Position numbers and translations under genes: made by a program. Under the pieces are notes generated by a model. That model was not told the DNA's origin and ran no database searches. It saw only the letters and a program-made list of their open reading frames with translations. Positions 36,080-61,329 of a DNA stretch of 64,000 nt are shown one piece after another. The DNA is from Dipteris shenzhenensis (taxonomy: Eukaryota). Position 1 is the first letter of the stretch. Each line of letters begins with the position of its first letter. The stretch lies in assembly GCA_047967505.1 (NCBI GenBank), contig CM106538.1, one strand, 5' to 3'.

Positions 36080-36884
36080 TGTAGCACCCCCCTAGCATAA
36101 CAAATCCAGGACAGAAATGCAAATCCTACAAAAAATCCACAAAAATCAGTCAGCGACACTATGTTTTCCTATCCCACTGACTCGACACCATAGAGCTATC
36201 CCACCGACCAAATATTTCACTGCCCAATGCATTAGTCATATCCCGTAGGTCAAATCTAGTGCCATAGAGCTATCCCACTAGCCTAACTTCTAACCACATC
36301 CTAACCCATTGCCCCGATTAAATGCATGTCAGAGTTGCTATCCCGCTAACCTGATAGCTGTTGACCTAGCACTATAGAGCTATCCCACTGATCGTGCTAT
36401 TCTTCTATGCCATCACGATGCGGTGAACCACGCCCATGCTTGTGCTCATATTCGTATCCCTCTGCCTGTTGCATTATGTCGATCGTACTGCCTGTTACTA
36501 TTTCATTCCACTGATTGTCGCTCTGTCCCTTGCACTGATTGTCACATTATGCTTATTCTGCCGATCATCATTTCACTCCTATCATGTCGCTTGGTGCGAT
36601 TTTTGATCCCCACACTCGTCACGATAACTATACCGCCGCTCGGTGCTCCATTTGTATCCCATTGACTTGTGATCCTGCCGACTTGTGATCTTGCCAACTT
36701 GTGATCCTGTCGCACACTTGGCAAGATCTACCCTGCCGATCATCGCATTATGTCGATCTTGGTGCTCGTGTCATTCTACTCTGCCAAGGTCGCTATAGAG
36801 CTATCCCATCGACAGTCGCGATACCTTTGGGGTAGCCAAAGAATTAAAAAATTCTAGAACCTCAGTTCAACCTGGGGGTGCTCA
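36080..36884 (+). repeat. Putative 5' LTR of the gypsy element, with internal 'atagagctatccca' repeats
   Basis: Inverted termini TGTAGCACCCCC / GGGGGTGCT(-)CA; the repeat recurs at ~36190, 36264, 36374 and 36795; no canonical PBS recognised. Confidence 0.6.
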
Positions 36885-37879: not shown

Positions 37880-38630
37880 TGACCCATAGCCATCTCCAAC
37901 CTAATGACCAAGTTCCTTGGAGAAGAGGATGGGGTCTCCCACGCGGAGCGATTTGAACAAATTTGTGAAGCCTATGGCACTCCCAGAGACCTAGAGATGG
38001 CTAATGCATTTGGCCTCATCCTAGATGACAAAGCAGGCCAATGGTATAGGGCTCTCACCCCAAAAGAAAAGATCAACTGGGAGACATTGAGAAAGTCCTT
38101 TATTGTGGGGTCGCCCCCAGCAGCCATAAATGGAGCTCGATCAACCAATTGTATGGTGTAAAGTAGAATGATAAGGAATCCCTAAGGGATTACATTGCCA
38201 AGATCAAGCACCTCAATGCCTGCTATAAACCGTACGATCGGATGAGCGACAAATGACTGTTGCCTCGCTTCCTTATCGAATTGGCAGACTCGAAGGTACA
38301 TGACCACCTCATGGTGATGAACCCTACCTCCTTTAATCTATGCAGCAAGGTGGCCATCTACATATGTGACAGCATGATGGACAAGGTGAATTTGAATAAA
38401 GCCCCAGCTCCCTCAAAAATAGCTCCATCAGTTAGGTCTTCAAGTGTAGAATCGATCAAGAAAGAGACTAACGAGCCCAAGGGCTTGGATATGAGGAAGC
38501 TGGCCTCTAATCTGTTAGATCAGCTAGGCCAATAGTGGAGGACAGGAACCTCCAAGGAGCTACCAAGCAACCCCCACTTGTTTCTGTGGAGAGAGAATGC
38601 TGCCTGGTTTGGGTTATGCAATGGCAACCA
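37880..38630 (+). pseudogene. gag: Gypsy Gag capsid region (Retrotrans_gag-like), continuing after the insertion at 44649
   Basis: KFLGEEDGVSHAERFEQICEAY..AFGLILDDKAGQWYRAL..INWETLRKSFI; ESLRDYIAKIKHL. Confidence 0.8.
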
Positions 38631-41600
38631 TGTTGAGATATCGAGCTCCACTCATGATATGCCAGGGTGACCGTTGTGTATTTATGTCACCGACTTGTTA
38701 GCTGTAGATGCGGTTGGTACACCGCCTGTTGAGATATCGAGCTCCACTCGCGATATGCCAAGGTGACTGTTGTGCATTTATGTCACCGACTTGTTAGCTA
38801 CAGATGCGATTGGTACACCGCCCACGAATAATAGCTGGATGATAGCTATCCTTATCTACACTAGTTCGTGGATCAGTTAGTATGCCACCTTAGTTAGTTG
38901 AGTTTGGTTTGAGACCCACATATAGGGTTCTTCTATTTCTTTGTACTTGAGTTCTTTTGGCTTACACAACTAAGAAGAGGAAAACTATTTTCAGCCTCCA
39001 CCTTTGTGTGTATTCCCCCATTGTGCATGTGAGAAAGCCACAAGTGAGACTCCTTCCCTCTCTCCCACTATCTTCACATGGTATTAGAGCCTTGTTCGTG
39101 GTAAGGAGCTCAAGAAAGCAAACCAAGTTCACGGTGTCCTAGTAAGAGGACCAATGTTGCTTTCCTATTTCGATTTTGGGAGCAAATCTCTACAGGTAGT
39201 ACAGCCAGAAGTGCAAGAGTGCACTGTCTCAGATTGAGACACCCTTTGCGGTGTGGCAAGAGGGCAGTATATGCTGCGGGTCAGGGCGAAGCCCTATGTG
39301 ACTTTATTTTTCTGATTCGAGGCCATTTCGGGGCCCGTTTTGAAGGCGGAAGTTCTTCGCAGGCACTCAGAAAAAGGCTTGGCAAATAACCCAGTCTATC
39401 ATGCTAGAACAAAGCACATTGAGGTGCATTATCACTATGTGCGGGAGAAGGTTTTACTAGGTCTTATTGATCTAGTTTATGTCAGCACAGAGGATCAGGT
39501 CGCTGACATATTCATGAAGGCATTGGGCACAGAGAAGCTGCGCAAGTTCGGAGACCTACTTGGTGTACAAGAATTGGGATTGAGCTCGAGGGGGAGTGTT
39601 GAGATATTGAGCTCCACTCATGATATGCCAGGGTGACCGTTGTTTATTTATGTCACCGACTTGTAAGCTGCAGATGCGGTTGGTACACCACCCACGAATA
39701 ATAGCTAGATGACAGCTATCCTTATCTACTCTAGTTCGTGGCTCAGTTAGTATGCCACCTTAGTTAGTTGAGTTTGGTTTGAGACCCACATATAGGGTTC
39801 TTCTATTTCTTTGTACTAGAGTTCTTTTGGCTTTCACAACTAAGAAGAGGAAAACTGTTTTTAGCCTCCACCTGTGTGTGTATTCCCCCATTGTGTATGT
39901 GAGAAAGCTGCAAGTGAGACTCCTTCCCTCTCTCCCACTATCTTCGCACGGTATCAGAGCCTTGTTCATGGTAAGGAGCTCAAGAAAGCAAACCAAGTTC
40001 ACGGTGTCCTGGTAAGAGGACCAGTGTTGCTTTCCTATTTCGAGTTTGGGAGCAAATCTCTGCAGGTAGCACAGCCAGAAGTGCAAGAGTGCACTATCTC
40101 AGATTGAGACGCCCTTCGCGGTGTGGTGAGAGCGCAGTATATGCTTTGCGATTTGAGGCCATTTTGGGGCCTGTTTTGAAGGTAGAAGTTCTTTGCAAGC
40201 ACTCAAAAAAAGGCCCTGTTTTTGCTGTGCGACCACTGCTCTGTTGGTCAGTGAAAAGTTGCCGCAAAAATTGCATCGTATGCCTGTGTGTAGAGATATT
40301 GGGAGTTGCAGAATCATGCTTGTTGCCTGTTCATGCAAAATCATCACTAGGAAGTGATTGTGTGGTCAAATACCACTTTTGTCAGTTTTGCAAATCTGCC
40401 CGTGTGAGGCAAAAGCTGTGTTTTTTTGTAGTGACAATATATTTTGCAGTGTTCTGTAATGGCATCTGATTCTCTTTCATAGATTGTCACTGAAAAGTTT
40501 GACAAGAACAACTTCCAGGCATGGAAGTTTAGAATGACGAATTTCCTTATGGGAAAAGGCTATTGGGAGTTCATTACAGGAAATGAAGAAGAACTAGTTC
40601 TTCCTATCGTTCCCAATCAATAGAAAATGCAGGCATTTAAAGGATGGCATGAGAGAGACAAAAAAGTTATGTACTGGCTGTCTATCAGTATTTCAGATTC
40701 TATGATTGTGCATATTCAGGATGCAAGTACGCCAAAGGAGGCATGGGATACTTTGGCCAAAATGTACAGCACAAATATGCAAGCCAGGAAAATGCATCTC
40801 AAACAGGAGTTGCACAATGTGCAGAGAGAAAATTTGAGCATCAACGACTACCACATGAAGGTGAAGAAAATTGCAGATGCACTTGCTTCCATTGGGTCGC
40901 TAGTGGAAGATGATGATCTAGTTTCTGTGACCTTGAATGGTCTAGGAAAGGATTATGCACAGTTCTGGACATCCATTGCCGTCCGTGAAAAATTTCCTGA
41001 TTTTGAAGAGTTGTTTGCTCTTCTAATTTCTGAAGAGCAGAGAAATGGGGGTGCATCTTCTTTAGGAGAAACTTCAAAAGAAATTGTCTTCTACTCAAAT
41101 GCTGGAAGAGGTAGAGGCAGAGGTAGAGGAGGCCGATCTGTAGGCTGTGGTAGAAATCAAAATATGCAGCAAACTCAAGAAAACCAGTCCTATGGAGGAG
41201 GACGTGGTAACTCTAGAGGCAGGGGGAGCCAAAGAGGCCGTAGTGGATGGCAGAGAGGCCAAAATGCAAACAACAATGTTGAATGCTACTACTGTGGTAA
41301 AATGGGTCATATGGCTAAGGACTGCTACAAAAAGCAGAATGACATTATGAATGGAAAATTGCAGCAAGGCAATTATGCATCTTCCAGTAGATAGGGCGAT
41401 GACAGAAATGAGCATCTATTTATGGTGCAGCACATGACCAATTCTATGACAAGTGCAGAAGAATGAAATGATGTGTGGTATGTTGACTCAGGTGCATCAA
41501 ACCACATGATAGATCATGCAGAGTGGATGCAGGATGCAAGGAAAATGGAAAAACCAAGATTTGTGGAGACTGGTGATGATACTGCACATCCTATTGTGCA

Positions 41601-44600
41601 GATTGGTAAAATTCCTTTGTCTATGTAGGATGGGAAAAAGGAATATTTGTCCGATGTATTTCATGTCTCGAACATCACCAAGAACCTGGTTTCTATTGGT
41701 CAAATGGTTGAGCAGGGCTTGCAGGTTAGATTTAATCCTCATGGATGCTTTGTTGAGGATTTGAAAAATAACGGTCGCTTGATAGCAAAAGAAAAGAAGA
41801 AGGGCAGGATGTTTACGTTGGATGCGGACATGCCTGAATTGAGTGCAGCAATGTTTGCACATGGGACCGGTGTAGTTGCAGATATTGATATGTGGCATAA
41901 ACGCATTGGTCATGTTAATATACAGCGACTTAAATCAATGCAAGTCCAAAATATTGTTGCAGGATTGCCTAAATTCAAGGTTGCAGAAAGGCATAAGGTT
42001 TGTGAAGCCTGTCAATTTGGAAAATAGGTAAGGAAACAATTTCCTAGGCATGTTCAAGAGAGTAAAAAGCCATTGGAATTAATCCACTCTGATGTGTGGA
42101 CTACTAAAGCTACATCTATTGGAGGCTGTCACTATTTTGTCACTTTTATTGATGACTTCAGCAGAAAAGTTTGGGTGTATTTTATGAAAAAGAAAAGTGA
42201 AGTGTTTGGGCACTTCAAAGATTTTAAAGCTATGGTTGAAAAAGAAACAGGCCTACAAATAAAATGCCTAAGGTCAGATGGAGGGGGAGAGTACCTCTCA
42301 AATGAGTTTGCAAGGTTTCTACAGGAGCATGGCATAAAGCAGCAATATTCATGCAATCATACCCCACAGCAAAATGGACTTGCAGAAAGGAAAAACAGGC
42401 ATATTGGAGAGGTATCTCGGGCCATGCTAAATGAGAAAGATCTACCATATTATTATTGGGCTGAAGCAGTTGCTACAGCAGTTTACATAATGAACAGACT
42501 CCCACTGCAGCAATACATGGCATGATGCCAGAGGAGATGTATACTGGTAGGAAACCAGACATTTCTCATTTGAAAATTTTTTGTTGCATTGCCTATGTTC
42601 ATGTGCCAGACAAGTTGGGGTCCAAGTTGGATCCAAAAGTTGAGAAGTCCATCTTTATTGGTTATTTTCTATAGCAAAAGGGTATAGATGCTATAACCCT
42701 TCTTCTCATAAGTTTACAGTGAGCAGAGATGTTGTTTTCGATGAGATGAGCAGCTGGTATAAACCAGTAAATGTGATGATTGATGTAGATGCACAAAATG
42801 GTAATGCTACACATAATTCACAGCAGCAATCACAAAATATCAGTGGACCTATAGTGTCCTCTAGCAGTGGTTCACATACTTTGCCATGGACAGGCAGATT
42901 GAGATCAGGAGAATCTCCTCAAAGCAATGCAGATAGTGGTACACAGGTATCACGAAAAGGAAAAGAGAAGGTAGATCAGCCCATGTTTGATGTGAATGCA
43001 GGTCACTCTTATGTGGATGGTGAATCCAGTGGCTCAGAACACAGCATTGATGATGAGTTGGGTATTCCTTCTGTTGTTACACCTAGAGTAAGGAAGACCA
43101 GGGATGTTTTGAGAACACCTGGAAGTGAGCCTATTTTGCATAGGTCTACCAGAGCTAGGTATCCTGTGGATAGGCTGAAATATGATGGATTTATAGCCAT
43201 TCACTGTGCCTATATGGTCAAAGTGATACAGGAATTAGAACCCACTTCCTTTGAGCAAGCCATGGGAAATGAAAAATGGGAGAAAGCCATGGATGAAGAA
43301 ATGGATGCCTTGGAAGCAAATGCTACATGGGAATTGGTTCCTTTGCCTAAAAACAAGAATGCAATTGGCTGTAAGTGGGTTTATAAGATCAAGCACAATG
43401 CAGATGGTTCTGTGAATAGATACAAGGCAAGATTAGTTGTCAAGGGGTATGCATAGACATATGGCATTGATTATGAAGAAACATTCAATCCGGTTGCAAG
43501 GATGGCAACTATAAGAGCAATCATTGCTATGGCTGCATCAAAGGGATGGTCTTTACATCAGATGGATGTAAAGAATGCCTTCTTGCATGGTGATTTGCAA
43601 GAAGAGGTCTTTATGGAGCAGCCAGCAGGTTATGTTCATGCTATTCATCCTGAGTTTGTTTGCAGGTTAAAGAAAGCCTTGTATGGCTTGAAGCAAGCAC
43701 CTAGAGCATTGTCTGACAAGATAGGACATTATATTGTCACTATTGGCTTTCAGATTTCCCAGGCAGATTTCTCACTCTATGTGAGAAAAATAGAGAAAGG
43801 GATTATGCTACTTGTCATTTATGTTGATGATTACCTGGCCAGATTTAAGCTATGCTGTTGGATTGGTAAGTCAATTTATGCAGGCTCCAAGGAAACCGCA
43901 TTTGGATGCGGCTAGATGCATACTCAGGTATGTGAAGTCCACATTGCAATATGGACTATTTTATGAGGCTGGGGTTCAGATACACTTGCATGGATACACT
44001 GATGCTGATTGGGTTGGTAGTACTTCTGATAGACGATCTACCAGTGGATATGTGCTCTCTTTTGGGAGTGCTGCAGTCACTTGGAGTAGCAAGAGATAGC
44101 CTACAATTGCCTTGTCGAGCATAGAGGCTGAGAAAAGGGGTGCAGCAATGGCTCCATGTGAGGTAGCTTGGTTGCATACGCTACTTTATGATATGCATCA
44201 GTCTAGAGATGGGCCAGTTGTCATTTATTGTGACAACATGAGCAGTATACACTTAGGAAATAACCCAGTCTATCATGCTAGCACAAAGCACATTGAGGTG
44301 CATTATCACTATGTGTGTGAGAAGGTTTTACTAGGTCTTATTGATCTAGTTTATGTCAGCACATAGGATCAGGTCGCTGACATATTCACGAAGGCATAGC
44401 TAGATGACAGCTATCCTTATCTACTCTAGTTCGTGGCTTAGTTAGTATGCCACCTTAGTTAGTTGAGTTTGGTTTGATACCCACATATAGGGTTCTTCTA
44501 TTTCTTTGTACTAGAGTTCTTTTGGCTTTCACAACTAAGAAGAGGAAAACTATTTTTAGCCTCCACCTGTGTGTGTATTCCCCCATTGTGTATGTGAGAA

Positions 44601-44643
44601 AGCTGCAAGTGAGACTCCTTCCCTCTCTCCCACTATCTTCACA
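38631..44643 (+). mobile_element. Compound Ty1/copia block (same family as 52161-57710) with four LTR segments; TSD AACCA
   Basis: LTR fragment 38631-38726; LTR 38727-39078 + PBS + leader joined to an RH tail and PPT; LTR 39597-39948 + PBS; internal region; 5'-truncated LTR ~44396-44643. AACCA at 38626-38630 and 44644-44648. Confidence 0.95.
40459..44397 (+). pseudogene. gag-pol: Copia gag-pol polyprotein, disrupted by stops, frameshifts and a ~310-bp RT deletion after YVDD
   Basis: CYYCGKMGHMAKDC; WYVDSGASNHM; ELIHSDVW..FIDDFSRK..SDGGGEY; HQMDVKNAFLHG; YTDADW. Confidence 0.95.
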
Positions 44644-46289
44644 AACCACCCCTCCAATGAAATTCTGTGCCTAAGGGCAAGGCTGGTGCTCTACTGCACA
44701 CACTGCTATAGGTGGGGAAATCATGATACCTCCCAAGGTCAATTTCTGAGTTCCCTTCCCCAACCCATGTATCAAATGAGACCTCCATTAGACCTAATAG
44801 CCCTGCCTAACCCCTTGATCACTCAAGGTGGTCTCGTGGTTAGTTTTAGCCATTACTAAACTCAGCTAGCTCCGTTACCACCACCCATATTGGGTCCATA
44901 GCCCCCGCTACCTCATATAGCCCTAGTCAATCAAGTGTTGGTGGAAGAAGTGCCCAACAACTAGGAGGAGACGGATCTTGATCATGGACCTCACGAGTAC
45001 TACCCCTATGAGGAGAGAAGTGGCACCCTGATCCACTACCTCCTACCAGAGGATCAATAGGTTCCTATATTCTAGATTGCCCCTGTAAATGCAAGGGCGA
45101 GAGACGTGAACTCAATTTCTCGGAGACCCCTGCTCTAGTGCTACACCTGCTAAGGCCCCCATAGAGCAAGTGAATGCCCCTACCAATGTCTTATTTCAAA
45201 TGCCAAGACCCACACTTCTTCAAGGACTATCTGTACGGGGATTCATACCCCTGTCACTCAAACCATGATCAACCCCACACCCTTGTGTCCAAGGTGTAGA
45301 ACCGAACATCTGTTCCAAGACTGTCCCATGAGGAGACCAACCACATCAATCATCCCGCCAAAGAGTACCAACCTTAATCTACTTAGCATCATGTAGGGCC
45401 ATGTGGCCATAGTGCCCCTACAAGTCATCACGAGGATGCAAGCCAAGGCATTAGGCAAAGCAATGAGGAAGCTCACAAGTAAGGGTAAGGGATCCCCGTT
45501 GCCCGGCCTCAAGATTCCCCCACATCCCCTAACCCGATCTAAGAAGGTCATTCGAGTAGGTGATGGTGGTGCTCATCCACAACGGTTTTGATGAGGAGAC
45601 AAGTACTCTTGCCACCTCCTCTACTTCTGAACAATCTTCCACCCAGGGTGACCTTGAAGTGCCCCCGATCCCAAAGGTAAACAATCCAGCGCGGATGCAA
45701 GGCCTAGCACCCTTGCCCTCCTATAAGGAGACCTATCCCGATCCGGTCTTAGAAAAGCAATACATAAAAGATGCCCAGAACTTGGTATGGGGTTGCCAAG
45801 AGAAGTTCAAGCATCGACTAAAGGCCAGTAGAGGGTCAGATACTATTCATCTAGCCCACTTGATGGGTGACCGAGGGGAAAAATCACTCAAGGTACCAGA
45901 GAGGGTGGAGGAAGAGAAACACCTCACCTTCGAGCAATCAGAAGCTCCCGATCTGATGCAAAAGATGTTCCAGGAAGACCTAGTGTTGCATAACCTCCAG
46001 GAGGAAGGAGACCTGTACAGCTTCAAGGACATGTTGTCCATGGAGGAAGAAGCTTTGCAAGAGCCCTATGACAGTGCTAGGTTGGCTGCCTTCCTATTGA
46101 TAGAGATGAAAATGTTGATCACTTCCCTGCTAAGAGGAAAGCCCATCCTATGGCATGATCTATCCAATTGAATGAATAGACCATTCTTACCTCCAACCCC
46201 TATTAGCTCTAAGCCTAACCAATTGACGATAGAAAAGGGGCAAACCAGACCTAAGGTTCCCATCAATAATCTAGGCTAGTACTTCGAGG

Positions 46290-46640
46290 GTAATGACATG
46301 AACACTTCTATCCCCGTAGTCTATCAAAACCAAAAGGTTGAAGCCATCCTGGATGGGGGAGCAGGAGTGAGTGTTTGCACCAAGCAATGATGGGTGAAAT
46401 GGGAAAAACCCACACTCAAGCAGACCCATCTAGTAGTAAAGTTAGCTGATGGGGGAATTGCCGAACCCTGGGAGTGCTGACTGGCATAAACATTAAGGTA
46501 TTTGGATTCACATACCCCATCAAGTTCATAGTCATAGACTTCACTCATCGATAGCCAGAATATGAAGTTATCCTAGGCAGGCCCTTCTTACAAATGTCCA
46601 GACTCGTGCATGACTGGCGTAATGATAGCATCTACTTGCG
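46290..46640 (+). pseudogene. Gypsy retropepsin (canonical position)
   Basis: VEAILDGGAGVSVC (Asp codon 46352-46354) ... YEVILGRPFL..VHDW. Confidence 0.85.
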
Positions 46641-47410
46641 GCATGAGGAGCAAACCATGAGAGTGGACTTGCGCACCTACAAGTCCCACCCATTGTCAGG
46701 ACACCTCTTTGCCGTAGAATCTGACACCACTACCCGAACCGCCTCTGTAAAGCTATTCCAAACCTGTGACAAGGAAGAGGATGAGAAGGAGTCTGACGAC
46801 TTCTGGTATGCACATCTCACCAAGCTGGAATTCTCGTAGAACTGGATGCACATCTTAGCCAATATAGATGTCCCAGAAAGAGTAGGGTTTCATATCACCA
46901 CTCCAGAGCTCGAGGGTCTAACCCCGATGGTTTCCCTAAGAATGTTTAACATGCTCAAACACTGAGAGGTAAGCAAGGGAACCGTGAGGGTAAAATCAAA
47001 TCTTCACTGGCTATCCTACGTAGGCACCATGACTGCTCACCCCATGAATTCTCCTCCAACTGGGGAAATGGGATGAGTAAGGTAACCTCACCCATCAGCT
47101 CTATAAGCACAATGGAAGAGCCCCCTTAAGGTCCCAAATCCCCTGTATCCAAAGGCATGGCTAAGGCAAGCCAGAGGCTAAGGCCAAAAGGACCACTGCT
47201 CCGATAGAGATAGAGGAAACTAAAGATAAAGAGGACCTACGGTAGGTACCAGCCCATTACAAGGCCTACATGATTCAGGATCATAAGATCTTATACCAAC
47301 AAGCCAAAAGGTCTCGAGAGGATGGATGTTCTCAAGGGTGTGATGGGCCAGCCCAGGTCAAGGAGGTAAACCTAGACCCAGAAGGGCAAGACCCCCAACC
47401 TGTATTTGTT

Positions 47411-49117
47411 GCGGATTCAAACCCAAGGTTAACTAACCTAACCCGAGTAAATTTTTATCTTGCCATGTGTCTTTGAACCTTAGGAAGAAAGGCTTTGTAA
47501 AAAGAAATCTAAAGCGATGGCGATGACGGAGCTGTTGTCGACCGTGATGGCGACGATGACGACAGAGCTTCTAGGTTGGCTGTGCATGCAAGAGGAGAGC
47601 TTAGAGCTCTCATGTAGGTTGTTGATGCAGTGTTGTTGTTGATGCAGTTGGAGGCATAGCTCCATGGAAGGAGCTTGCAAATCCTTCGTTGTTGCCTCGA
47701 CTTCATAGCCAGTGTGCAAAAGAACTAAGAGCTCGAATCGCTAAAGGAGACGGAGCTGCTGTAGACCACGCTCTTTGGATGAGGTCGATGAGTTCGCAGA
47801 GCTATAGTTGCTGTGAAGCAGCTGTTCATATCAGGAGGCTGGCTCATCATCAACAGTTGGAGCCACGGCATTGAGAGCTGTCTTGTTGAAGCCATAGGAG
47901 CTGCTCAGAGGTGTTTGAGCCTTCTTGTTTCTTGAAGTAGCACTATTTGGAGTAGCAACTAGTCATAGGTGTTCTCAGAGTTGAAAATGAAGAGGGTGTT
48001 TGCCCATCTTTTGCTCCTAATCATGGTGCTTCTGATTGCATTTTGGTGCATCTTTGGCAGTCACAGCTTCTTGGCTTATATGAAGATCGTGAGGTCCTTG
48101 CATTGCTCTACCCTTGTGCTCATTGATAGTGGCAGCTGTGCTACCTTCTCTTGAAGGGCTGATGAGGGAGCCGATGGTTCCATTGATGGATGCACTCGTC
48201 GAATGGGCTATGGAGCCTAATTACTGTTGGCCCACTGAACGAGGTGTTGGCTATTTTCTTTGTTGCTTCTACCTCCAAACATGGTGGCCATCACGATGGT
48301 GATGACAGCATAAGAAGAAGAAGAACTATCACTATTGCAGCTATGACTACTGCATCGAGACACTAGTAGCATGCCAACAACAACTGCTTGAGAGCTGCTA
48401 TCATGAGCTTGGCTAAGAGGTGACTAGCATAGGAGCTATGGCACTGTAGTTGTCGTCATAGAGTAGCTATAGTTGAGGTGTGGAGCCTTAAAGGTTCTGA
48501 AGCTTGCTTGTAGTGCTATTTTGGCACTGGCTCATTGGCATTTGTTCTTGAAGGCTAGAAGAGCTTATTTAGGGTCCTTGGGGATCTCCCTTAGAGGGAG
48601 AGCTCACAACACTCACAAGAGAATGTTCAAGAACCACTCACATTCTCTCATACTTCTCCCAAAAACTAAACAAGGGTAACCACTATCTCTCTAAAACTAA
48701 TCTAGAAGAAAACATGAGCTCCTAATGCATGCCTACAACAAATCTACTAGGAGACTAGACCTAAGCTCTGATACCATGAGAAAGTGAGGATCGTGCTAAA
48801 CCTAGTGCACACAAGATCAGCAAAAGAACTAAGGAGGCTCAAAGCACACTAAATAAGACATGAGAGGGAGATATCAAATCTATATCTCTTGCAATGTGTG
48901 TTTATACACAACAATACATGATAGGCCTCTTTATAAAGAGAGTGCCCTTTGAATAGTCAACACATGTGGGATCCTCTCATTCACATCTCTCCTTGTGGAT
49001 ATCCTCAATCCACATCTCCACATCATGTAGTCCACATCCTAGGGTGGCTACTTTAATTCTTTCCTTTGGCATACCTTATCCTCTAATTATGTGCTCATGG
49101 CACCACAACTCTCAATA
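47411..49117 (-). mobile_element. 5' LTR (48777-49117), PBS-iMet (48765-48776) and non-coding leader of an LTR element inserted antisense into the gypsy pol
   Basis: TGGTATCAGAGC abuts the LTR; the LTR terminus matches 17130-17159; occupies the position of RT-RH-INT core. Confidence 0.85.
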
Positions 49118-49118
49118 G

Positions 49119-49380
49119 TTGCGTGCACCCTACTCTCTCCAAGTAGAAAAGGCCCAATGTAAAAAGTGGTTTGATCGCAACCTCAAGAACAAGGACCTAG
49201 TAGAAGGAGATTTGGCACTCCTATACAACGTCTGTAATACTAAACGTAAGCCTAAGTACCGAGGTATGGGTCCCTACCACATAGTTGAGATCTCTCCCCA
49301 AGGGTCGTGCTGTATAGCCACCCTTGATGGGATAGAAATGGATGCTACCTTAATGGGAGCAAATTAAAAAGATACTATGG
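49119..49380 (+). pseudogene. pol: Gypsy integrase C-terminal (GPY/F) module
   Basis: KKWFDRNLKNKDLVEGDLALLYN..GPYHIVEISPQGSCCIATLDG.. then (frameshift) YLNGSKLKRYY. Confidence 0.85.
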
Positions 49381-49570
49381 ACCACCACTCACTCTCTCCA
49401 CCCTTCAAGCTGTGCATAAAGAAATAGAAGTCAAGGCCGAGGTGGCCAAGATGAAATGCCAGGCCATTGAGGAAGCCAAAATCCATAATGCTAAACTCCG
49501 AGAGCATGAGCAAATGACATTGCATAAGGCAACGACTGAACAAATGCAACTAATGGATGAACTAATGGTA

Positions 49571-49900
49571 GAGCCATCTAGGTTGCTTGTTCAACTATAG
49601 GTCCCGGACATGCGCATCAAAGCACTTGTGGATCCAAGAGCGTGAGCCACAACTTCCTCTCCCGTGAGGTATGGGAAAAGCTACAAGCACCCCTAACCCT
49701 CACTGTCACTTCAATAAGAGCTATAAACGGCCAACTCCTACAAATTTTGGGTTTTGTGAATTTAAGTCTAACGGTTGTTCACCAAGTAGTGGATATACGA
49801 TTTTACATTCTCCCCACAGAACAATCGAAGGACAGATTATACTAGGAAGAACCTGATGCTATGCCATGAACTGTCAAATTGACTGGTGCACCCAGAATGC
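49571..49900 (+). pseudogene. Second retropepsin-like domain downstream of integrase
   Basis: RIKALVDPRA/(fs)SHNFLSREVWEKL..IRAINGQLLQILG..FYIL../(fs)GQIILGRT*CYAMNCQIDW. Confidence 0.75.
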
Positions 49901-52160
49901 TTCACTCACCAATGGTGGCCAAATGGCAGTAGTTTCATTGTGTGGACCAAGTCTTGCTTCTTCAATTCCACCTCACTGATCCACAATAATGAAGCAACAC
50001 AGCAAGGCAAACCGGAAGCCGTAGCCACCACCAACACCCCACCAAAAGTCCTAGCTCAAAGGGGAAAGAAAGTTAGCTACAATGGTAAACCAGTGCCATT
50101 GCCCGCTCCACTGATGTCACCATCGTCCGCTCAGGAAATCCGTGAGTAGCAAGTACAAAATTCTATCCTCTGTGCCCAACATCACTTCGATCGGACCCAA
50201 CTCCCAAAGGATGTCAAATCAACAAGGCAGGCCCCGGTCGCCCCAAGGATGCCTTGTCCGAGGCCACCCATTACTAGAAGAAAACCACACTGCTAGCCTG
50301 CACCCCCACCTCATCCACCACCACACCACCCCACCAATAGCACGGTCAACCAACCACTTGGCTGGCCAAGGCAAGAAGGTTGCCTGGGAAGTCAACAGTG
50401 CAAACCTTGAAGGTCTTGAAGGCAACACCACAAGAACTTGTCTCCTCGAGATACAACACCACAAGAACCTATCAATGAACCAAATTAAGCACACTATCCC
50501 CAAGGTACCGAGTATGCACTAGTACCACACGGATGGTCTGACTCAACACAAGTGTGACCCCAAATAGCTAGGGAGTGCCATAGAATTGACCCCTCCCCTA
50601 TGAGGAGTTCCACAATAACCTCCCTCTAGGGATAAACACACGAAAGAAATGGCAGACATACCCCCTCGGACGGTACCGTTCTACTCAAGGAAGCAAGGGT
50701 CTGCACCAAGGGTGAACTCATGAAAACTCACTTCTTCCAAGAAGACAGACCACACTGCAACAACTAAGCCCAGTGCAAATGTGCCCCTGGCATCCAAGGT
50801 AAAAAACAAACTGGACACTTACTCTACATGGCTTCTTACATGCTATGCAAAAGCCGCATTCCTCATAATCATCGAGTCTAGGTCTAGGTGAGTCAATATG
50901 GTAGGCATCTCACCCGATGCACCCACAGCCCACTAGTCCCTACCGAACATACCACACACCCACAGTTAGCACTAAGTGATTAGGATCAGCTGTCCATTTT
51001 TGCATTTGTTCATCATCTTGCATGCTGACCTCACAATCATGCCTACACCACACAAGTGCACTCTACTCACTCACTCTTTCCTCCCCCCCCACACTCTCTC
51101 CTTCTTTTACTCCTTTACATAGCCAGTATCCTGTTGGCCGTCACCATAGAGGTATCCCACCGACTGTCATGATCCCAACATCCCACCGACCACCACCATA
51201 CCCAAATCACACCGATCATTGCCATAGAGGTATCCTGCCAACTGTCACGATCCCAACATCCCGTCAGTTGTCGCCCAAGAAGTATTCCACTGGTTGATGC
51301 CAAAGAAAGACCCCATCGCCATTGTCAGATCGCACCAACTGTCGCTATCTATTTACCTCACCGATCGTCACTATACCCATATCCTGCCGATCGTGGGGAT
51401 GTAAAATCTATATAAATAGGCCTATCCCATCGGGTTGTCACCGTAGCAGTTGCCCCCAAACTCTTGCAAAATTTGCCCAAAATTCTAACAATTTCCTACT
51501 CTCTTCCACTACCATCTAAATAGCTTGTTTATGTCCTCTCTGTCTTCCTCATCCACCGACTCCCTCGTCACTCAACTACCATCCCTCTTTTCGATGGATC
51601 CCGAACGCGAGTTCTTTGAGTTTGAATCAAATTTGGGACTCCACCCTTGCCCTATCCTAGAAGCCACTAGCCCCTTGAACTCCCAAAGCACTCCATCTTC
51701 CACAATCCGCATGCCTTCCAAGATCCCCTTGGAAGACTTGCAAGGAGAAGAAGAGACATCCACCACCAAGCAGGCCACTCAAGAGGGTACCCCCATAGCA
51801 GGCACGCCTCCCTTGAGATCAAGAAAGCACACCTTAGTGCCATCAACAGGTGAGTACAAGGTCATGCACTCCCAAGCACACTCACCACTTGGAGAAGCAT
51901 GGCTCCAAGAACTAGATGCTTGCATTGTACACTCGTGCTTTGCATATGAGGGTCACAACTACACCCTCCACTACCATATAGTAGCAGCATATGCCGCACT
52001 AAAGGTGCCATTGATCGAGGAGGCACTCAAAATTACCGGCATGAGCAAAGTGGCAGAACACCTCCCATGTCACCTGGACATGAAGCTACTAGCAGAATTC
52101 CTCCAGGCATACAATAGCAAGACCAGCGTTGGTGTCTTGTGAGATGCAACAGGCAATCCC

Positions 52161-55100
52161 TGTTGAGATATCGAGCTCCACTCGCGATATGCCAAGGTGA
52201 CTATTGTGCATTTATGTCACCGATTTGTTAGCTGGAGATGCGGTTGGTACACCGCCCACGAATAATAGCTGGATGATAGCTATCCTTATCTACACTAGTT
52301 CGTGGCTCAGTTAGTATGCCACCTTAGTTAGTTGAGTTTGGTTTGAGACCCACATATAGGGTTCTTCTATTTCTTTGTACCAGAGTTCTTTTGGCTTTCA
52401 CAACTAAGAAGAGGAAAACTGTTTTCAGCCTCCACCTTTGTGTGTATTCCCCCATTGTGATTGTGAGAAAGCCTCAAGTGAGACTCCTTCCCTCTCTCCC
52501 ACTATCTTCACATGGTATCAGAGCCTTGTTCGTGGTAAGGAGCTCAAGAAAGCAAGCCAAGTTCGTGGTGTCCTGGTAAGAGGACCAGTGTTGCTTTCCT
52601 ATTTCGAGTTTGGGAGCAAATCTCTGTAGGTAGCACAGCCAGAAGTGCACGAGTGCACTGTTTCAGATTGAGACGCCCTTTGCGGTGTGGCGAGAGCGCA
52701 ATATATGCTGCGGGCAAGGGCGAAGCCCTTAGTGACTTTATTTTTCTGATTTGAGGCCGTTTCGGGGCCCGTTTTGGAGACGGAAGTTCTCCGCAGGCAC
52801 TCAAAAAAAGGCCCTAATTTTGCTGTGTGACCACTGTTCTGCGGGTCGGTGAAAAGTTACCGCAGAAATTGCATCATATGCCTTTGTGCAGAGATATTGG
52901 GGGTTGCAGATTCAAGCCTGTTGCTTGTTGATGCAAAATCGTCACTAGGAAGTGACTGCGTGGTGAAATACCACTTTCGTCAGTTTTGTAGTTCTGCCCG
53001 TGTGAGGCAAAAGCTGTGTTTTTTGCAGTGACAGAATATTTTGCAGTGTTGTGTAATGGCATCTGATTCTCTTTCACAAATTGTCACTGAAAAGCTTGAC
53101 AAGAACAACTTTTAGGCATGGAAGTTTAGAATGACGAATTTCTTGATGGGAAAAGGCTATTGGGAGTTCATTACAGAAAATGAAGAAGAACCTTTTCTTC
53201 CTAATGTTCCCAGTGAACAGGAAATGCAGGCATTTAAAGGATGGCATGAGAGAGCCAGGAAAGTTATGTACTGGCTATCTATTAGTATTTCGGACTCCAT
53301 GATTGTGCATATTCAGGATGCAAGTACGCCAAAGGAGGCATGGGATACTTTGGCAAAAATGTACAGCACAAATACGCAAGCCAGGAAAATGCAACTCAAA
53401 CAGGAGTTGCACAATGTGCAGAGAGAAAATTTGAGCATAAATGACTACCACATGAAAGTGAAGAAAATTGCAGATGCACTTGCTTCCATTGGGTCGCCAG
53501 TGGATGATGATGATTTGGTTTCTGTGACCTTGAATGGTCTAGGAAAGGATTATGCACAGTTTCGGACATCCATTGCCGTCCATGAAAAATTTCCTAATTT
53601 TGAGGAGCTGATTGCTCTTCTAATTTCTGAAAAGCAGAGAAATGGTGGTGCATCTTCTTCAGCAGGAACTTCAAAAGAAATTGTCTTCTACTCAAATGCT
53701 GGTAGAGGTAGAGGCAGAGGTAGAGGAGGCCGATCTACAGGACATGGTAGAAATCAAAATATGCAGCAAATGCAAGAAAACAAGTCCTATGGAGGAGGAC
53801 GTGGTAACTCTAGAGGCAGGGGGAGTCAAAGAGGCCGTGGTGGATGGCAGAGAGGCCAAAATGCAAATAGCAATGTTGAATGCTACTATTGTGGCAAAAT
53901 GGGTCATATGGCTAAGGACTGCTATAAAAAGCAGAATGACATTATGACTGGAAAATTGCAGCAAGGCAATTATGCATCTTCTAGTAGGCAGGGTGATGAC
54001 GGAAATGAGCATCTATTTATGGTGCAGCATATGACCAATTCTGTGACAAGTGCAGAAGAACAAAATGATGTGTGGTATGTTGACTCAGGTGCGTCAAACC
54101 ACATGACAGGTCATGCAGAATGGATGCAAGATGCAAGGAAAATGGAAAAGCCAGGATTTGTGGAGACTGGTGATGATACTGCACATCCTATTGTGTAGAT
54201 TGGCAAAATTCCTTTGTCTATGCAGGATGGGAAAAAGAAATACTTGTCTGATGTATTTCATGTCCCGAACATCACCAAGAACCTGGTTTCTATTGGTCAG
54301 ATGGTTGAGCAGGGCTTGCACGTCAGATTTAATCCTCATGGATGCTTTGTTGAGGATATGAAAAATAATGGTCGCTTGATAGCAAAAGGAAAGAAGAAGG
54401 GCAGGATGTTTACGTTGGATGCAGACATGCCTGAATTGAGTGCAGCAATGTTTGCACATGGGACCGGTGTAGTTGCAGATATTGATATCTGGCACAAACG
54501 CATTGGTCATGTTAATATACAGCGACTTAAATCAATGCAAACCCAAAATATTATTGCAGGATTGCCTAAATTCAAGGTTGCAGAAATGCACAAGGTTTGT
54601 GAAGCCTGTCAATTTGGGAAACAGGCAAGAAAACCTTTTCCTAGGCATGTTCAAGAGAGTAAAAAGCCATTGGAATTAATCCACTCTGATGTGTGGACTA
54701 CAAAAGCTGCATCTATTGGAGGCTGTCACTATTTTGTCACATTTATTGATGACTTCAGCAGAAAACTGTGGGTGTATTTTATAAAAAAGAAAAGTGAAGT
54801 GTTTGGGCACTTCAAAGCTTTCAAAGCTATGGTTGAAAAAGAAACAGGCCTGCAAATAAAATGCCTAAGGTCAGATGGAGGGGGAGAGTACCTCTCAAAT
54901 GAGTTTGCAAGGTTCTTGCAGGAGCATGGTATAAAGCAGCAATATTCATGCAGTCATACCCAACAGCAAAATGGAATTGCAGAAAGAAAAAACAGGCATA
55001 TTGGAGAGGTATCTCGGGCTATGCTAAATGAAAAAGATCTACCAGATTATTATTGGGCTCAAGCAGTTGCTACAGCAGTCTATATAATGAACAGGAATCC

Positions 55101-57710
55101 CACTGCAGCAATACATGGCATGACACCACAGGAGATGTATACTGGTAGGAAACCAGATATTTCTCATTTGAAAATTTTTGGTTGCATTGCCTATGTCCAT
55201 GTGCCAGATGAGTTGAGGTCCAAGTTGGATCCAAAAGGTGAGAAGTGTGTCTTTATTGGTTATTCTCTGCAGCAAAAAGGGTATAGATGCTATAACCCTT
55301 CTACACGTAAGTTCACAGTGAGCAGAGATGTTGTTTTTGATGAGATGAGCAGCTGGTATAAACCAGTAAATGTGATGATTGATGTAGATGCACAAAATGG
55401 TAATGCTGCACAGAATTCACAGCAGCAATCACAAAATATCAGTGGACCTGCAGTGTCCTCTAGCAGTGGTTCACATACTTCGCCATGGACAGGTAGATTG
55501 AGATCAGGAGAATCTCCTCAAAGCAATGTAGATAGTGGTACGCAGGTATCACGAAAAGGAAAAGAGAAGGTAGATCAGCCCATGTTTGATGTGAATGCAG
55601 GTCACTCTTGTGTGGATGGTGAATCCAGTGGCTCAGAACAGAGCATTGATGATGAGTTGGGTATTTCTTCTGTTGTTACACCTGAGTAAGGAAGACCAGG
55701 GATGTTTTGAGAGCACCTGGAAGTGAGCCTATTTTGCGTAGGTCTACCAGGGTTAGGTATCCTGTGGATAGGCTGAAATATGATGGATTTACAGCCATTC
55801 ACTATGCCTATATGGTCAAAGTGATACAGGAACTAGAACCCACTTCTTTTGAGCAAGCTATGGGAAATGAAAAATGGGAGAAAGCCATGGATGAAGAAAT
55901 GGATGCCTTGGATGCTAATGCTACATGGGAATTGGTGCCTTTGCCTAAAGGCAAGAATGCAATTGGCTGTAAGTGGGTTTATAAGATCAAGCACAATGCA
56001 GATGGTTCTGTGAATAGATACAAGGCAAGATTAGTTGTCAAGGGGTATGCACAGACATATGGCATTGATTATGAAGAAACTTTCAGCCCGGTTGCAAGGA
56101 TGGCAACCGTAAGAGCAGCCATTGCTATGGCTACATCAAAGGGATGGTCTTTACATCAGATGGATGTAAAGAATTCCTTCTTGCATGGTGATTTGCAAGA
56201 AGAGGTCTTTATGGAGCAGCCAGCAGGTTATGTTCATGCTATTCATCCTGAGTTTGTTTGCAGGTTGAAGAAAGCCTTGTATGGCTTGAAGCAAGCACCT
56301 AGAGCATGGTCTAACAAGATAGGACAGTATCTTGTAATTATTGGCTTTCAGATTTCCAAGGCAGATTTCTCACTCTATGTGAGAAAAACAGAGAAAGGGA
56401 TTATGCTGCTGGTCATTTATGTTGATGATTTGATCATCACAGGTGATAGTGATGAAGATATCCTTCATGTGAAAATGCTATTGAGGCAGAAGTTTGAGAT
56501 GAAGGATTTGGGAGAGCTGCGTTATTTCTTGGGCATTGAGGTGATTAGATCACCAAGTGGGATACAGCTCTTGCAGAGGCAGTATGGATTGGACGTGCTG
56601 TCCAAATATGGGATGACAGGTTGTAAGCCTATTTCAATTCCTTTAGAGTAGAATGTGAAGCTGAGCGCAGATGCAGGTGAGCTTCTGGAGGACCCTACTA
56701 TGTACAGACACATAGTAGGAAGTTTGATTTACATGACTATTACCAGGCCAGATTGCTGTTGGGTTGGTAAGTCAGTTTATGCAGGCTCCAAGGAAACCGC
56801 ATTTGGATGCGGCTAGACGCATACTCAGGTATGTGAAGTCCACATTGCAGTATGGACTATTTTATGAGGCTGGGGTTCAGATACAGTTGCATGGATACAC
56901 TGTGGTAGTATTTCTGATAGACAATCTACCAGTGGATATATGTTCTCTTTTGGGAGTGCTGCAGTCACTTGGAGCAGCAAGAAACAGCCTACAGTTGCCT
57001 TGTCGAGCACAGAGGCTGAGTACAGGGGTGCAGCAATGGCTGCATGTGAGGTAGCTTGGTTGCATAAGCTACTCTATGATGTGCATCAGTCTACAGATGG
57101 ACCGGTTGTCATCTATTGTGACAACATGAGCAGTATACATTTGGCAAAGAACCCAGTCTTTCATGCTAGAACAAAGCACATTGAGGTGCATTATCACTAT
57201 GTGCGGGAGAAGGTTTTACTAGGTCTTATTGATCTAGTTTATGTCAGCACAGAGGATCAGGTAGCTAACATATTCACGAAAGCATTGGGCGTAGAGAAGC
57301 TGCACAAGTTTAGAGACCTGCTTGGTGTGCAGTATTTGGGATTGAGCTCGAGGGGGAGTGTTGAGATATCGAGCTCCACTCGCGATATGCCAGGGTGACT
57401 GTTGTGCATTTATGTCACCGACTTGTTAGCTGGAGATGCGGTTGGTACACCGCCCATGAATAATAGCTGGATGACAGCTATCCTTATCTACACTAGTTCG
57501 TGGCTCAGTTAGTATGCCACCTTAGTTAGTTGAGTTTGGTTTGAGACCCACATATAGGGTTCTTCTATTTCTTTGTACCAGAGTTCTTTTGGCTTTCACA
57601 ACTAAGAAGAGGAAAACTGTTTTCAGCCTCCATTTTTGTGTGTATTCCCCCATTGTGATTGTGAGAAAGCCTCAAGTGAGACTCCTTCCCTCTCTCCCAC
57701 TATCTTCACA
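52161..57710 (+). mobile_element. Structurally complete Ty1/copia LTR retrotransposon (5550 bp); TSD ATCCC
   Basis: LTRs 52161-52512 and 57359-57710 (352 bp, TG..CA, 7 transition differences by eye); PBS TGGTATCAGAGC 52513-52524; PPT GAGGGGGAG 57350-57358; ATCCC at 52156-52160 and 57711-57715. Confidence 0.98.
53056..57398 (+). pseudogene. gag-pol: Copia gag-PR-INT-RT-RNase H polyprotein, inactivated
   Basis: All domains in copia order, including YVDD. In-frame TAG at ~53113, 54196 and 56649; frameshift at ~55684; 8-bp and 13-bp deletions near 56752 and 56902, the latter removing RNase H DADW. Confidence 0.97.
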
Positions 57711-59249
57711 ATCCCCACCTCTATCAAATCAATCAAGACATGGTACGGGTAGCCTTCAACCTACCGGTCGTTAGCAAAAAGTATTCCAAAAAGAAAAAGC
57801 TGGATGCCCTCAAAACGGTCTGAGTACGAGTAAAAAGCACCACGGCTTCCAATTCAGAGAAGAGATAATTTTTGAATCAAGAAAGCAGGTGGAATTTAAG
57901 AGAGTTGCATGTAACGACTTCCTAAGTGATAACGCGGCATGGAGCAGGCCTCAGCTCTTTTTCATTGATAAGATACCACCAACAAATATCTTGCAATGTA
58001 ATGATAGAATATCGCATACCACAATTACCAAAATGGGATTGTGCAATATTGTCGTATTTGTGAGTAAAGAAAATGAAGAAGTCATGCTGCATATTTTACA
58101 AAATTAGTATAGCAATGAGCTCAAAATATACATTGGTGTGTATGCAATGACAAAAGATAAAAGAGAATATGGCTTGAAGACACATACGTTTGAATCCTTC
58201 ATCATGCTCATGAAGACCATTGACCCAGACCTCCAAAGTAATGTAAGAGGTAGCACAAAGCACTTGCATCTCATGCTTGAAGAGCATGCCACTTCTAAAT
58301 ATCATCATCAAAAACCTCTTTACCATTCAAGTCCATCTAAAAGTGGTGGTCTGTTGCTTAATATGATGGGGAATTTTTACAACCGCATCGGGATGGGAGG
58401 TCACCTTGATTTGGATGGGATATTTGTTTGAGGATTTTTTTAAGAAAAGGATACTCCACAAATATCGTTGTGAGAAGGATGGAGATTGCAATATTACAGC
58501 ATCTAGATCTTCTAGATCATTGAAGAATAGTAGCTTCCTAGGGTGCTCATCAAGGATGTGGAGGGGTTTGCTTAACCAAGTTTGTGACTCTATGAGCATC
58601 TTAGATTTATTGAGCCACTTCATTTGCAGTGTGTTGACTTATGCTCTAAAGAAGTCCTATTCTTGAGCAAAAGTAGTTGTATCAAGCACTAATGGTAATG
58701 TTGTTGCCTCATCTTTTAAGTTGTTTGCATTGCCTATTCTTTGCCTTTCAGCATCCACAATATTTGCCTTTGATTTGTTACTATTGATGTTCATCACAAG
58801 TAGAGTGTTGCTCCTTATTTTAAGAAAAGGCTGGCCATCTCCTTGGTGAGATCAGGAGGTTGGAGCTCAAGATTACAATCACTCTATTTTGCTTTAATGT
58901 CATTGAAGAATATGATTTTGGGGGGATCCAACTGTTGGCACAATGTTGTAGGACATTGATGACTTTTGAAGCTTCAATGGTGAATTCCATCCTTACCTAT
59001 TAAAGCTATGGGATGTGCCTACCTCAAAAAAGGAGAGGATCTCTAGCACCACAAAGTCAAGGGGGGCATCAATTGGTAGATAGACAATGGCCTTCATGGC
59101 ACCACTTGTATTACTCAAAAAATGGAGCTAGAGCTACCTAAGGTGGTGACATCCCGATTGGATTCTGGCACTTGAGTGGTGGACTATCAAAGCTTGGCTG
59201 ATACTCAGTTGATATGTTCATTGAATTGAGGGTGAGAAAAATGGATGCG

Positions 59250-59900
59250 GTGCTCACAACAATCCAATTAACACACCTTCAAACAACCATAGTAAGCATG
59301 GGCATTGAGCAATCGAGTCGACCCTCACATCAATCCAAATGTTTGCTTGGTTATAAGAAGCAATGCCTTGGTTCTCCAAATTGAAATAAATCCATCAATA
59401 CATAGCTTGAGCTAGTGTTAGGGTCTACTTTGTGACTAGGACCAATGATTTTTTTTTCCAAATCTAGTGAAACAAACCTCAACAGCAAGATAGCAATAAA
59501 TGGAATTCAATAACTAACTTGACCATTATGCTTTCATGAGGGTCAAATTGGTCACAAGGACTTGTATTGTTTTCCTATTTCAAAAAGAAGCACAAGATAT
59601 TCATTAGGAGAGAGAGTGATCATGAGATCACAAAGGTCAAGGAATACTTAGAGAATGTTTGATACAAATGCATAAATTAACATGTCAAGATAGAGAGAAA
59701 CAAAGAGACAACAATGGTCCAAAAATACTAGGACAAGAAAGTAGCAACTCGCCATTTTAATGACTTCCACTGAGTACCAATCAATGAAGTTAAGTAATGA
59801 TGCTAGGGTGGTGTAGGTGGTAGAATATGGAAAGATAAGAGACAGGTGATAGATCCAAAGGTTAATATCATCCAAGCACACTACAATCTCGAACTTTGTC
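59250..59900 (-). mobile_element. Possible decayed LINE ORF1 remnant
   Basis: Weak: ID.EG..C..C..YG-like zinc-knuckle lead-in at ~59290-59340; heavily degenerate. Confidence 0.3.
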
Positions 59901-61329
59901 AGCTATGTAGGGCAAGACTAAGAGCTTTAGAAGGAATACTATCAAGAGTTGTTGAAATAAACAATCGAAGGTAGGAGATGAACCTACCATAAGTCTAGGA
60001 CTAAGAGAATATGAATAAATACTTGAGAGTTTGAAAGAAACAACCAAAGGTAGGAGAGGAAACTACCATGAATTAGAGGGAGGAGGGAAAAGATTGGATA
60101 TCAATGCACCAACTAATGCTTGTAATTTCCCACCATCAAAACATTATCTATAGCTCAAGAAATGAGCTGAGCTGTAGTCATCCAACTGGCTAATTACAAC
60201 CGTGCATTTATTGCAGCCTTACTTGTTGCAAGCGGTTACTCTATTTCAAATGCCTTATATTTTTCAAGACCTATGGGATTTCCTCGTACATAGACAACAC
60301 TATTTCCTTGATTTATTTGTGCTCAAAAACTCCTAGTTCATATTTGAAGTATGCCTTGCATTTGAAATGGATAGCATTAGTATCTTTGGTATAGAAAAAG
60401 AACTCGGTGTTATGGATAGTGATGCATCCTCCTTAACATATGTGCGAGAGACCTTTTTAGTGCCCTTCTTTAATGTGGATATTCATTCCTTAGAGCTTCA
60501 CCATCCTATAAGCATTGCAATGTTAAGCACACCCATCTCGATTCCTTGTGAGGTGTTGTCTTTAACAAATGAAAAGGAAGTCATAGGGGAGCATTGGTAA
60601 AAAAAAATGCAGTACCCTCTATAAATGCTCTCATAAGCAAGAGTGCAAAGTAAAAGAAAAGGATTTTTCATGCAATGAAAGTGGCAATGTGGGGAGTCTG
60701 AACTTGGATGAAATAGCATCTCATGATTCTACATTAGAATCTTGTGGCTCTTCCTTTATTATGCAATCAATTTCAGTGTTGTGTCTCTCACTACTACATC
60801 ACTAGACTCAAGTATACTCCAAATATGTGTGAGAAATAATGAACCTTTCTCAAGTTATTGAGCTTCTTGTTGTTTGATCTACCAGCCAGCCGATGAGAAA
60901 TAATATTTGATGCATGGAATGGAGAAAATGTTGATCCTTGGGATTGTTACACTATAACATTAATTGATACTTTCTCAAGTGACATTTGGGTCTCCTCATG
61001 TGAGGATTTTGTTTTTTTTTAAGCAGAAAAAAAGTGGTTGTATATTATTCATAAGTTATTACAAGTAGCTTCCATTTTCCCACACAAAGAGTTACAAAAA
61101 ATTTTCAAACATTTGATATCTATTGAGAATAGCAAAGTGGAGATAAGGGTATTAGATAACATGAGAGGTCACAGGCTGAGAGCATCAAAGAGAATGGACT
61201 CAAAGAGGTTCTTCCTTGACTTCAATATTTTGCCCATTTGTAGAGAGACGACTGCCTTCATTATTCCCATTCACTGAAATAGCAGAGCCTATTTCTCTTT
61301 TAGGAGAAGAAAAGGGAGGGGGTACAATG

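Follow-up and report, generated by a model that had tools for sequence, protein, structure and literature searches.

The stretch of DNA analysed here (the window: 64,000 nucleotides of contig CM106538.1 of Dipteris shenzhenensis, one strand) is rich in plant-type long terminal repeat (LTR) elements, and at 49119-49976 it holds what is very likely the dead 3′ fragment of an LTR retrotransposon of Ty3/gypsy (Metaviridae) type, one whose Pol frame runs past the integrase. The order in this fragment is integrase C-terminal tail, charged helical linker and retropepsin-like domain, the same as in the intact relatives that we recovered; the observation is genuine, and represents a variant of Ty3/gypsy Pol in which the integrase is fused in frame to a retropepsin-like domain. 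An earlier interpretation made from the letters alone (the sequence-only reading) had proposed a second aspartic-protease-like domain behind the integrase of a gypsy polyprotein; the motifs that it quoted are present where it placed them, and the frame that it followed from the integrase tail through a charged linker is open at 49328-49600 (90 codons, spanning tail and linker). The parts of the fragment are:

49119..49361, + strand, frame 3: integrase C-terminal tail after the rve core, up to a frameshift
49346..49600, + strand, frame 2: integrase end (LNGSKLKRYYGP) and charged linker of ~70 amino acids, up to the TAG at 49598-49600; matched by P0005 residues 71-171 (tblastn)
49601..49645, + strand: N-terminal strand of the retropepsin-like domain with D-P-R-A, then a frameshift; aligned to SLIDPGASHNFIS of the relatives
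49645..49842, + strand, frame 1: body of the retropepsin-like domain (SHNFL..AINGQ..RFYILP); phmmer match to P0001, E 6.9e-7; family profile, E 1.7e-9
49827..49976, + strand, frame 3: C-terminal part of the domain (IILGRT, TGA at 49854-49856, CYAMNCQIDW) and start of the tail; family profile, E 2.3e-6

The short motifs that mark these parts are located as follows:

49161-49187: KKWFDRNLK
49349-49378: LNGSKLKRYY
49622-49642: ALVDPRA, with D-P-R-A at 49631-49642
49645-49659: SHNFL
49720-49734: AINGQ
49836-49853: IILGRT
49875-49886: QIDW

Five breaks interrupt the fragment, three of them frameshifts and two in-frame stops:

near 49346-49361: frameshift
49598-49600: in-frame TAG
near 49642: frameshift
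near 49812-49827: frameshift
49854-49856: in-frame TGA, where the relatives have Trp (the W of ILGRTW)

The claim that the integrase is followed, with few breaks, by a retropepsin-like domain was borne out by collinearity with intact open reading frames (ORFs): residues 1-267 of the protein P0005 align with 49137-49928 in four high-scoring segment pairs, in frames 3, 2, 1, and 3 (tblastn, E 1.3e-50). All 21 family proteins match 49119-49976 collinearly, and nothing else in the 64-kb window (tblastn); a hidden Markov model (HMM) of the relatives’ domain, compared with the six-frame translation of the window, matches only at 49642-49836 (E 1.7e-9), 49815-49904 (E 2.3e-6), and 49556-49645 (E 0.37). 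The integrase tail shares 65% identity with P0005 residues 1-75 and 72% with P0020 residues 208-260 (tblastn), and also matches the integrase of a metagenome locus, L001 (phmmer, E 4.3e-12). At the other end, 49827..49976 matches P0005 residues 229-267 at 49% identity and P0016 as far as 49970 (tblastn); beyond 49976, comparison with the relatives’ tail gives just weak collinear matches (E 0.6-2), for which we claim no homology. A protein search by words with the window linker (49328-49645) returned 0 of 125 candidates.

We also placed contigs of four public sequencing runs on the window at 80% likeness. A 514-nt contig of run X7 is placed without interruption on 49316-49626, across the junction, and a 1586-nt contig covers 49184-49344, continues through a diverged linker of similar length, and then covers 49511-49703 and 49826-49923 before running onward; run X2 adds a contig of 151 nt on 49316-49468. 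One related contig differs in length where the window has its frameshift near 49642. In run X4 the likeness ends at the integrase end (loose ends at 49352 and 49385), a pattern that fits other families having just the integrase in common with this one. The domain is found both in contigs of another run and in database ORFs.

The relatives were recovered starting from the 66-amino-acid domain body (49645-49842), which was compared by phmmer with 1.84 billion representative proteins (E<=1e-3). Three proteins matched at this threshold, of which P0001 (130 amino acids, E 6.9e-7, 40% identity) carries LIDPSASHNFIS ... IRAINGT ... VRFYVMP ... HVILGRTWCYLTNCQVDW; the other two, P0002 and P0003, are repeat proteins and were set aside as spurious. 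Onward searches from P0001 and P0005 gave 2, then 20 proteins, and cluster look-ups brought more, including P0031, a single uninterrupted ORF of 685 amino acids. P0031 contains an rve core (9-109, E 1.7e-11), the C-terminal part of the integrase with YINGSKLRRFYGP at its end, a charged linker, and a protease-like domain (SLVDPGASHNFIS ... HVILGRTWCYLTNCQIDW, with gag-asp_proteas over 377-455), followed by a Ser/Thr/Pro-rich tail in which RWIPKGLLQAQGYFEGEKNVWLPRQ is repeated as RWVPVPLLEGQGFYQGNDQIWVPKQ; this tail matched neither a known family nor a known fold. The integrase end (YINGS..) and the protease-like motif stand in one frame in eight ORFs (P0031, P0005, P0007, P0008, P0011, P0045, P0015, and P0021), none of which has a stop between integrase and domain, although some of the eight fall in one 90% cluster and are not all independent.

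Scanning metagenomes with integrase-tail patterns gave four loci (L001-L004). A frameshift and an in-frame stop interrupt L003 within the integrase tail and the first part of the linker, and the ORF after these breaks comprises the remaining linker, then ALVDTGADVNAIS ... SVILGQPW. L004 encodes RVT_1, RT_RNaseH_2, Integrase_H2C2, and rve, then the same kind of integrase tail, and its contig ends within the linker; the order reverse transcriptase (RT), RNase H, integrase indicates the Ty3/gypsy order for the lineage. The same kind of scan with an alignment of the protease-like domain (A2) gave 100 pattern matches, 0 of them confirmed; no match was found in viral contigs with alignments A2 and A3, or in genome contigs with A3. 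Taken together, the relatives have an integrase C-terminal domain that runs in frame into a charged stretch of ~45-60 amino acids, predicted to form a single long helix, then a domain of ~110 amino acids with a retropepsin fold, and then a Ser/Thr/Pro-rich, predicted-disordered tail of up to ~200 amino acids.

The retropepsin identity of the domain was examined by the profile and structure comparisons that the sequence-only reading had proposed, and both gave retropepsin matches in the relatives. The L003 ORF scores above the Pfam cut-offs for Asp_protease_2 (31.5 vs. 24.3 bits), gag-asp_proteas (29.9 vs. 28.2), and RVP (21.2 vs. 20.7), and in seven of the 21 members almost the full length of the gag-asp_proteas and Asp_protease_2 profiles is matched, at scores below the curated cut-offs. 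A profile search of the PDB with the family found ASPRV1 (E 8e-5), with the family Asp aligned to the catalytic Asp. The fold was tested on models of relatives rather than on the broken window copy. The AlphaFold2 model of P0005 (mean predicted local distance difference test, pLDDT, 71.8) comprises an integrase tail rich in beta structure, a single long helix (86-128), and the domain, at pLDDT ~78-92 in 10-residue blocks; in the P0031 model the domain reaches 82-92, the helix spans 299-342, and the tail falls below 50. Foldseek with the P0005 model gave 46 matches at E<=1e-3, and nearly all of those listed are retropepsins or the RVP domain of Ddi1/DDI1, one listed match being a protein of unknown function (DUF785). 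VIA-align of P0005 model residues 142-273 with Ddi1 RVP gave Z 14.0 (root-mean-square deviation 2.3, 115 residues aligned), and with retroviral proteases Z 9.4-12.1 (EIAV 12.1, XMRV 11.8, HIV-1 ~9.5). In addition, an atlas look-up of P0005 returned leads at scores of 0.75-0.76, all of them retropepsin clusters. The second conserved motif is present as well (IILGRT at 49836-49853 in the window; HVILGRTW, HVILGRLW, and SVILGQPW in relatives), as is the C-terminal strand. By these models and profiles, the fold of the domain is that of a retropepsin.

Two groups of extension-bearing sequences can be told apart by integrase-tail identity:

group A: P0031, P0005, P0011, and the window
group B: P0015, P0018, P0021, L003, and L004

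Since both groups carry the extension while being only 36-52% identical to each other in the integrase tail, the arrangement is old. The sequence-only reading had remarked on D-P-(R/G) in place of the usual D-[ST]-G, and this oddity extends beyond the window, where the motif is D-P-R-A and the catalytic D-[ST]-G-A triad is not found. Among the 14 relatives that cover the motif, seven have D-P-G, two D-P-R (P0011 and P0045), and one each D-P-S, D-L-G, and D-S-R; the canonical triad is kept in the remaining two, as D-S-G (P0015) and D-T-G (L003), both of group B. As judged from these sequences, D-P-x is a feature of a clade, and not just decay of the window copy. In group A the integrase tail is the most alike part (mean pairwise identity 85%), followed by the domain (77%), the linker (63%), and the tail after the domain (58%); a domain better conserved than the linker and tail that flank it fits constraint acting on the domain. 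We also observed a motif in the tail, RW[IV]P..LL..QG..G....W[LV]P, which occurs twice in P0031 (~555-640) and also in P0004, P0014, P0016, and L003:491-1441, and which is conserved between groups A and B.

Upstream of the integrase tail, and far downstream of it, the window holds weaker traces of what may be the same old element:

37900..38726, + strand: gag capsid-like remnant, split off by a copia cluster; Retrotrans_gag E 0.13, weak
45139-45177 and 45286-45324, + strand: two CCHC-like gag nucleocapsid knuckles, found by regular expression on the translation
46337..46680, + strand: upstream protease-like stretch (PR1; ILDGGAG at 46346-46366, ILGRPF at 46570-46587); Pfam RVP E 0.13, weak; possibly part of the same element
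51127..51408, + strand: ~40-nt sub-repeats, possible LTR or untranslated-region flanks of the old element; they recur only at 36170-36825, best E 7e-4, weak

One of the two knuckles contains a stop and one has CX2CX3HX4C spacing. The PR1-like stretch sits ~2.4 kb upstream of the integrase tail, and nothing like RT, RNase H, or integrase core is seen at 47480-49118; the relatives’ RT, RNase H, and integrase core find no counterpart in the window besides the tail, at E<=1 (tblastn) or E<=10 (phmmer). By eye, a few traces resembling motifs can be made out upstream of 49119, on which we base no claim. The sequence-only reading had taken PR1 for the normal protease of the element: its motifs are there (46346-46587), its identity as a protease is weak, and its link to the element that carries the integrase tail is putative. 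PR1 is not matched by the HMM of the post-integrase domain (46337-46680, E<=10), so nothing points to the two being recent duplicates. Three copies of the sub-repeat begin at 51144, 51222, and 51345, and the occurrence of the sub-repeats at both ends hints at one old element spanning the whole region. Of the claim for a two-protease polyprotein, the in-frame domain behind the integrase has held, and the N-terminal protease in the same polyprotein is one that we infer; the lineage probably has an ordinary one.

The fragment lies in an old, heavily decayed region of 7.5 kb (44644-52160) between two copia loci:

38727..44643, + strand: copia cluster inserted into the older element (self-BLAST; RVT_2 E 5.9e-55)
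52161..57710, + strand: second copia copy; LTRs 98% identical, ATCCC on both flanks

The first locus is an array (LTR, deleted internal part, LTR, full internal part, LTR, with 352-bp LTRs) without matching flanks, and the copia elements of both loci are young. Translations read through stops (as X) match no Pfam family on the + strand of 44401-51602 (E<=0.1), on the - strand of 44642-52161 (E<=1), or in 28001-38802 and 57601-64000 (E<=0.01); the copia RVT_2 match at E 5.9e-55 served as the positive control for this procedure. Ending 18 bases before the second copia copy is a frame of 217 codons, stop to stop (51489-52142, + strand), that has no Pfam match and the end of which may resemble the start of a plant mobile domain. 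Two stretches, 47154-47404 and 46150-46400, have very high summed contig depth (5914 and 327 in run X4, 127 in run X7), these values being sums over contigs that were not used for ranking parts, and are shared with high-copy repeats of other organisms. Elsewhere in the window there are tandem duplications at 12130-12530 (200-nt units, 93.5% alike), 29828-30476 (~170-nt period), and 21031-21199 (86-nt units, 99%).

We propose that the Pol of this lineage continues in frame from the integrase C-terminus into a charged helix, a retropepsin domain, and a disordered tail. Retropepsins act as homodimers, and the domain would dimerise as they do, with the rigid helix as a tether, so that dimerisation would take place together with the integrase. 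In group B (L003 and P0015), where D-[ST]-G-A is kept, the domain would be a second aspartic protease tethered to the integrase, and the intact triad makes a working second protease plausible there. In group A, Pro replaces Ser/Thr, and the D-P-R copies lose the Gly as well. The Ser/Thr of the retropepsin triad stabilises the paired active-site loops; because Pro stands in its place, we lean slightly towards reading the group A domain as a non-catalytic or weakened, dimerising and peptide-binding module on the integrase C-terminus, occupying the place where chromoviruses carry a chromodomain. A further reading, to which we give a probability of roughly 0.5, is that the sequences belong to an old, undescribed Ty3/gypsy clade in which a second retropepsin was joined to the integrase by a rigid charged helix, ancestrally as a working D-T/S-G enzyme; one branch would have passed to D-P-G with the fold kept, and the retropepsin fold would have taken on a new role beside the integrase, as an accessory module that serves dimerisation, tethering, or targeting and matches the chromodomain in function.

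Several observations weigh against the proposed Pol architecture. We know of no active-site variant with D-P-G, and group A reaches at best 24.2 bits where the Pfam gathering score is 28.2, and 23.5 where it is 24.3; the pieces of the window, taken singly, have no relevant Pfam match. The relatives are, without exception, genes predicted on short contigs (0.5-18 kb); none of them reaches further upstream than RT (L004 starts inside RT), and self-comparison of the window detects no LTR pair for the old element. The conservation within each group could partly stem from recent amplification. In L001 (1-939) and L002 (472-753) the integrase ends 5-6 residues after LKRF[HY], without an extension, which means that the module is dispensable, or was lost or gained; these two loci show 53-54% identity over the matched integrase stretch and 38-53% in the tail matrix (41-53% to both groups), where the 62 aligned residues are too few to tell loss from the ancestral state. 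Some of these points serve other explanations. For example, the domain behind the integrase might be the sole protease of the element, in a Pol of the order RT, RNase H, integrase, protease with none before RT, and such a relocation would agree with the canonical D-[ST]-G of group B, with the lack of any relative that reaches upstream of RT, and with a PR1 that is weak (RVP E 0.13) and separated from the tail by ~2.4 kb without detectable RT, RNase H, or integrase core. However, the window does have gag-like knuckles and ILDGGAG..ILGRPF upstream in the expected order, with the same sub-repeats at both ends, and the D-P-G of group A is hard to square with a sole processing enzyme; we also know of no Ty3/gypsy element without an N-terminal protease, and regard relocation as unlikely.

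Nested and chimeric LTR elements are very common, and two copia insertions have made a mosaic of the present locus, so the domain might be a protease fragment of another gypsy element, acquired by a one-off recombination or nested insertion and copied along without function; the non-canonical triad of group A and the close relatives without the extension would suit such a passenger. A 5′-truncated gypsy element inserted behind the integrase would carry RT downstream of the protease and, upstream, gag or a zinc knuckle. What precedes the domain is instead the charged helix, without a zinc knuckle, and what follows it is a low-complexity tail (~175 amino acids in L003, ~200 in P0031) without an RT match; with no RT after the domain and no gag or knuckle before it, nor any LTR accompanying it, it is not a nested element, and none of the outcomes that the sequence-only reading had named as refuting it was observed. 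The frame is moreover open from integrase to domain in the eight ORFs, and through all 685 amino acids of P0031, the architecture is common to two groups that differ as much as A and B do, group B retains the structural motifs and D-T-G or D-S-G, and the domain is conserved above linker and tail, all of which makes a functionless passenger improbable. Gypsy proteases and integrases have given rise to host genes (ASPRV1 in the case of proteases), and ASPRV1 is the best PDB sequence match, but a domesticated host gene family of integrase-plus-protease ORFs is very improbable given the many diverged or decayed copies (a 19-member cluster; frameshifts in L003, L004, and the window), the multi-copy depth in run X7, and the RT and RNase H upstream in L004. 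Chance resemblance of the window motifs, which the lack of Pfam matches to the pieces might suggest, is excluded by the tblastn, HMM, and phmmer matches (E 1.3e-50, 1.7e-9, and 6.9e-7, respectively).

A retropepsin behind the integrase is probably an undescribed arrangement. By literal text matching, no open-access full text was found to describe a protease that follows the integrase, with supplements, REXdb tables, and subscription journals lying outside that search. The plant-element survey REXdb names eight polyprotein domains, of which only aRH, CHD, and CHDCR are extras (PMC6317226); a 2026 paper on Tat elements describes an RNase H after the integrase (PMC13468544), and the ICTV profile of the Metaviridae places only env downstream of the integrase (PMC7879559). 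Accessory domains at the integrase C-terminus govern landing site and classification, the chromodomain being the known example, and a retropepsin in this position would add a new lineage-defining domain, which annotation tools would read as a nested element. For genome annotation, “INT followed by PROT” should not always be taken for a nesting artefact.

The closest parallel in position is offered by the chromoviruses, in which an accessory domain, the chromodomain, is likewise fused in frame at the integrase end and defines the lineage (CHD and CHDCR are extra domains of this kind in PMC6317226); in our family the fused part is instead a retropepsin fold with a long helix and a long disordered tail, and Pfam finds no Chromo match in P0031, P0004, P0005, or P0015 (E<=0.1), nor in the L003 ORF (E<=0.01). 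The Tat lineage, with its aRNH, resembles it in having a second copy of a pol-type enzymatic domain downstream of the integrase (PMC13468544), but the extra domain there is an RNase H and here protease-like, and no RNase H was found downstream of the integrase in P0031 (E<=0.1) or the L003 ORF (E<=0.01). With canonical retropepsins (RVP, RVP_2, gag-asp_proteas, and Asp_protease_2) the domain shares the fold and the order hydrophobic-D-x-G-A, ILGR, C-terminal strand; it differs from them in standing after the integrase, whereas theirs lies between gag and RT, and, in the group to which the window belongs, in having D-P-G or D-P-R and falling under the Pfam cut-offs. Ddi1/DDI1 RVP is the best structural match (VIA-align Z 12.7-14.0; Foldseek E 4.9e-6) and ASPRV1 (SASPase) the best match by sequence in the PDB; these are single-copy host genes with other partner domains and 11-19% identity, while the partner here is a retrotransposon integrase. 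The series from D-T/S-G to D-P-G would provide natural material on how a protease fold becomes a non-catalytic module, the same question that is posed by Ddi1 and ASPRV1.

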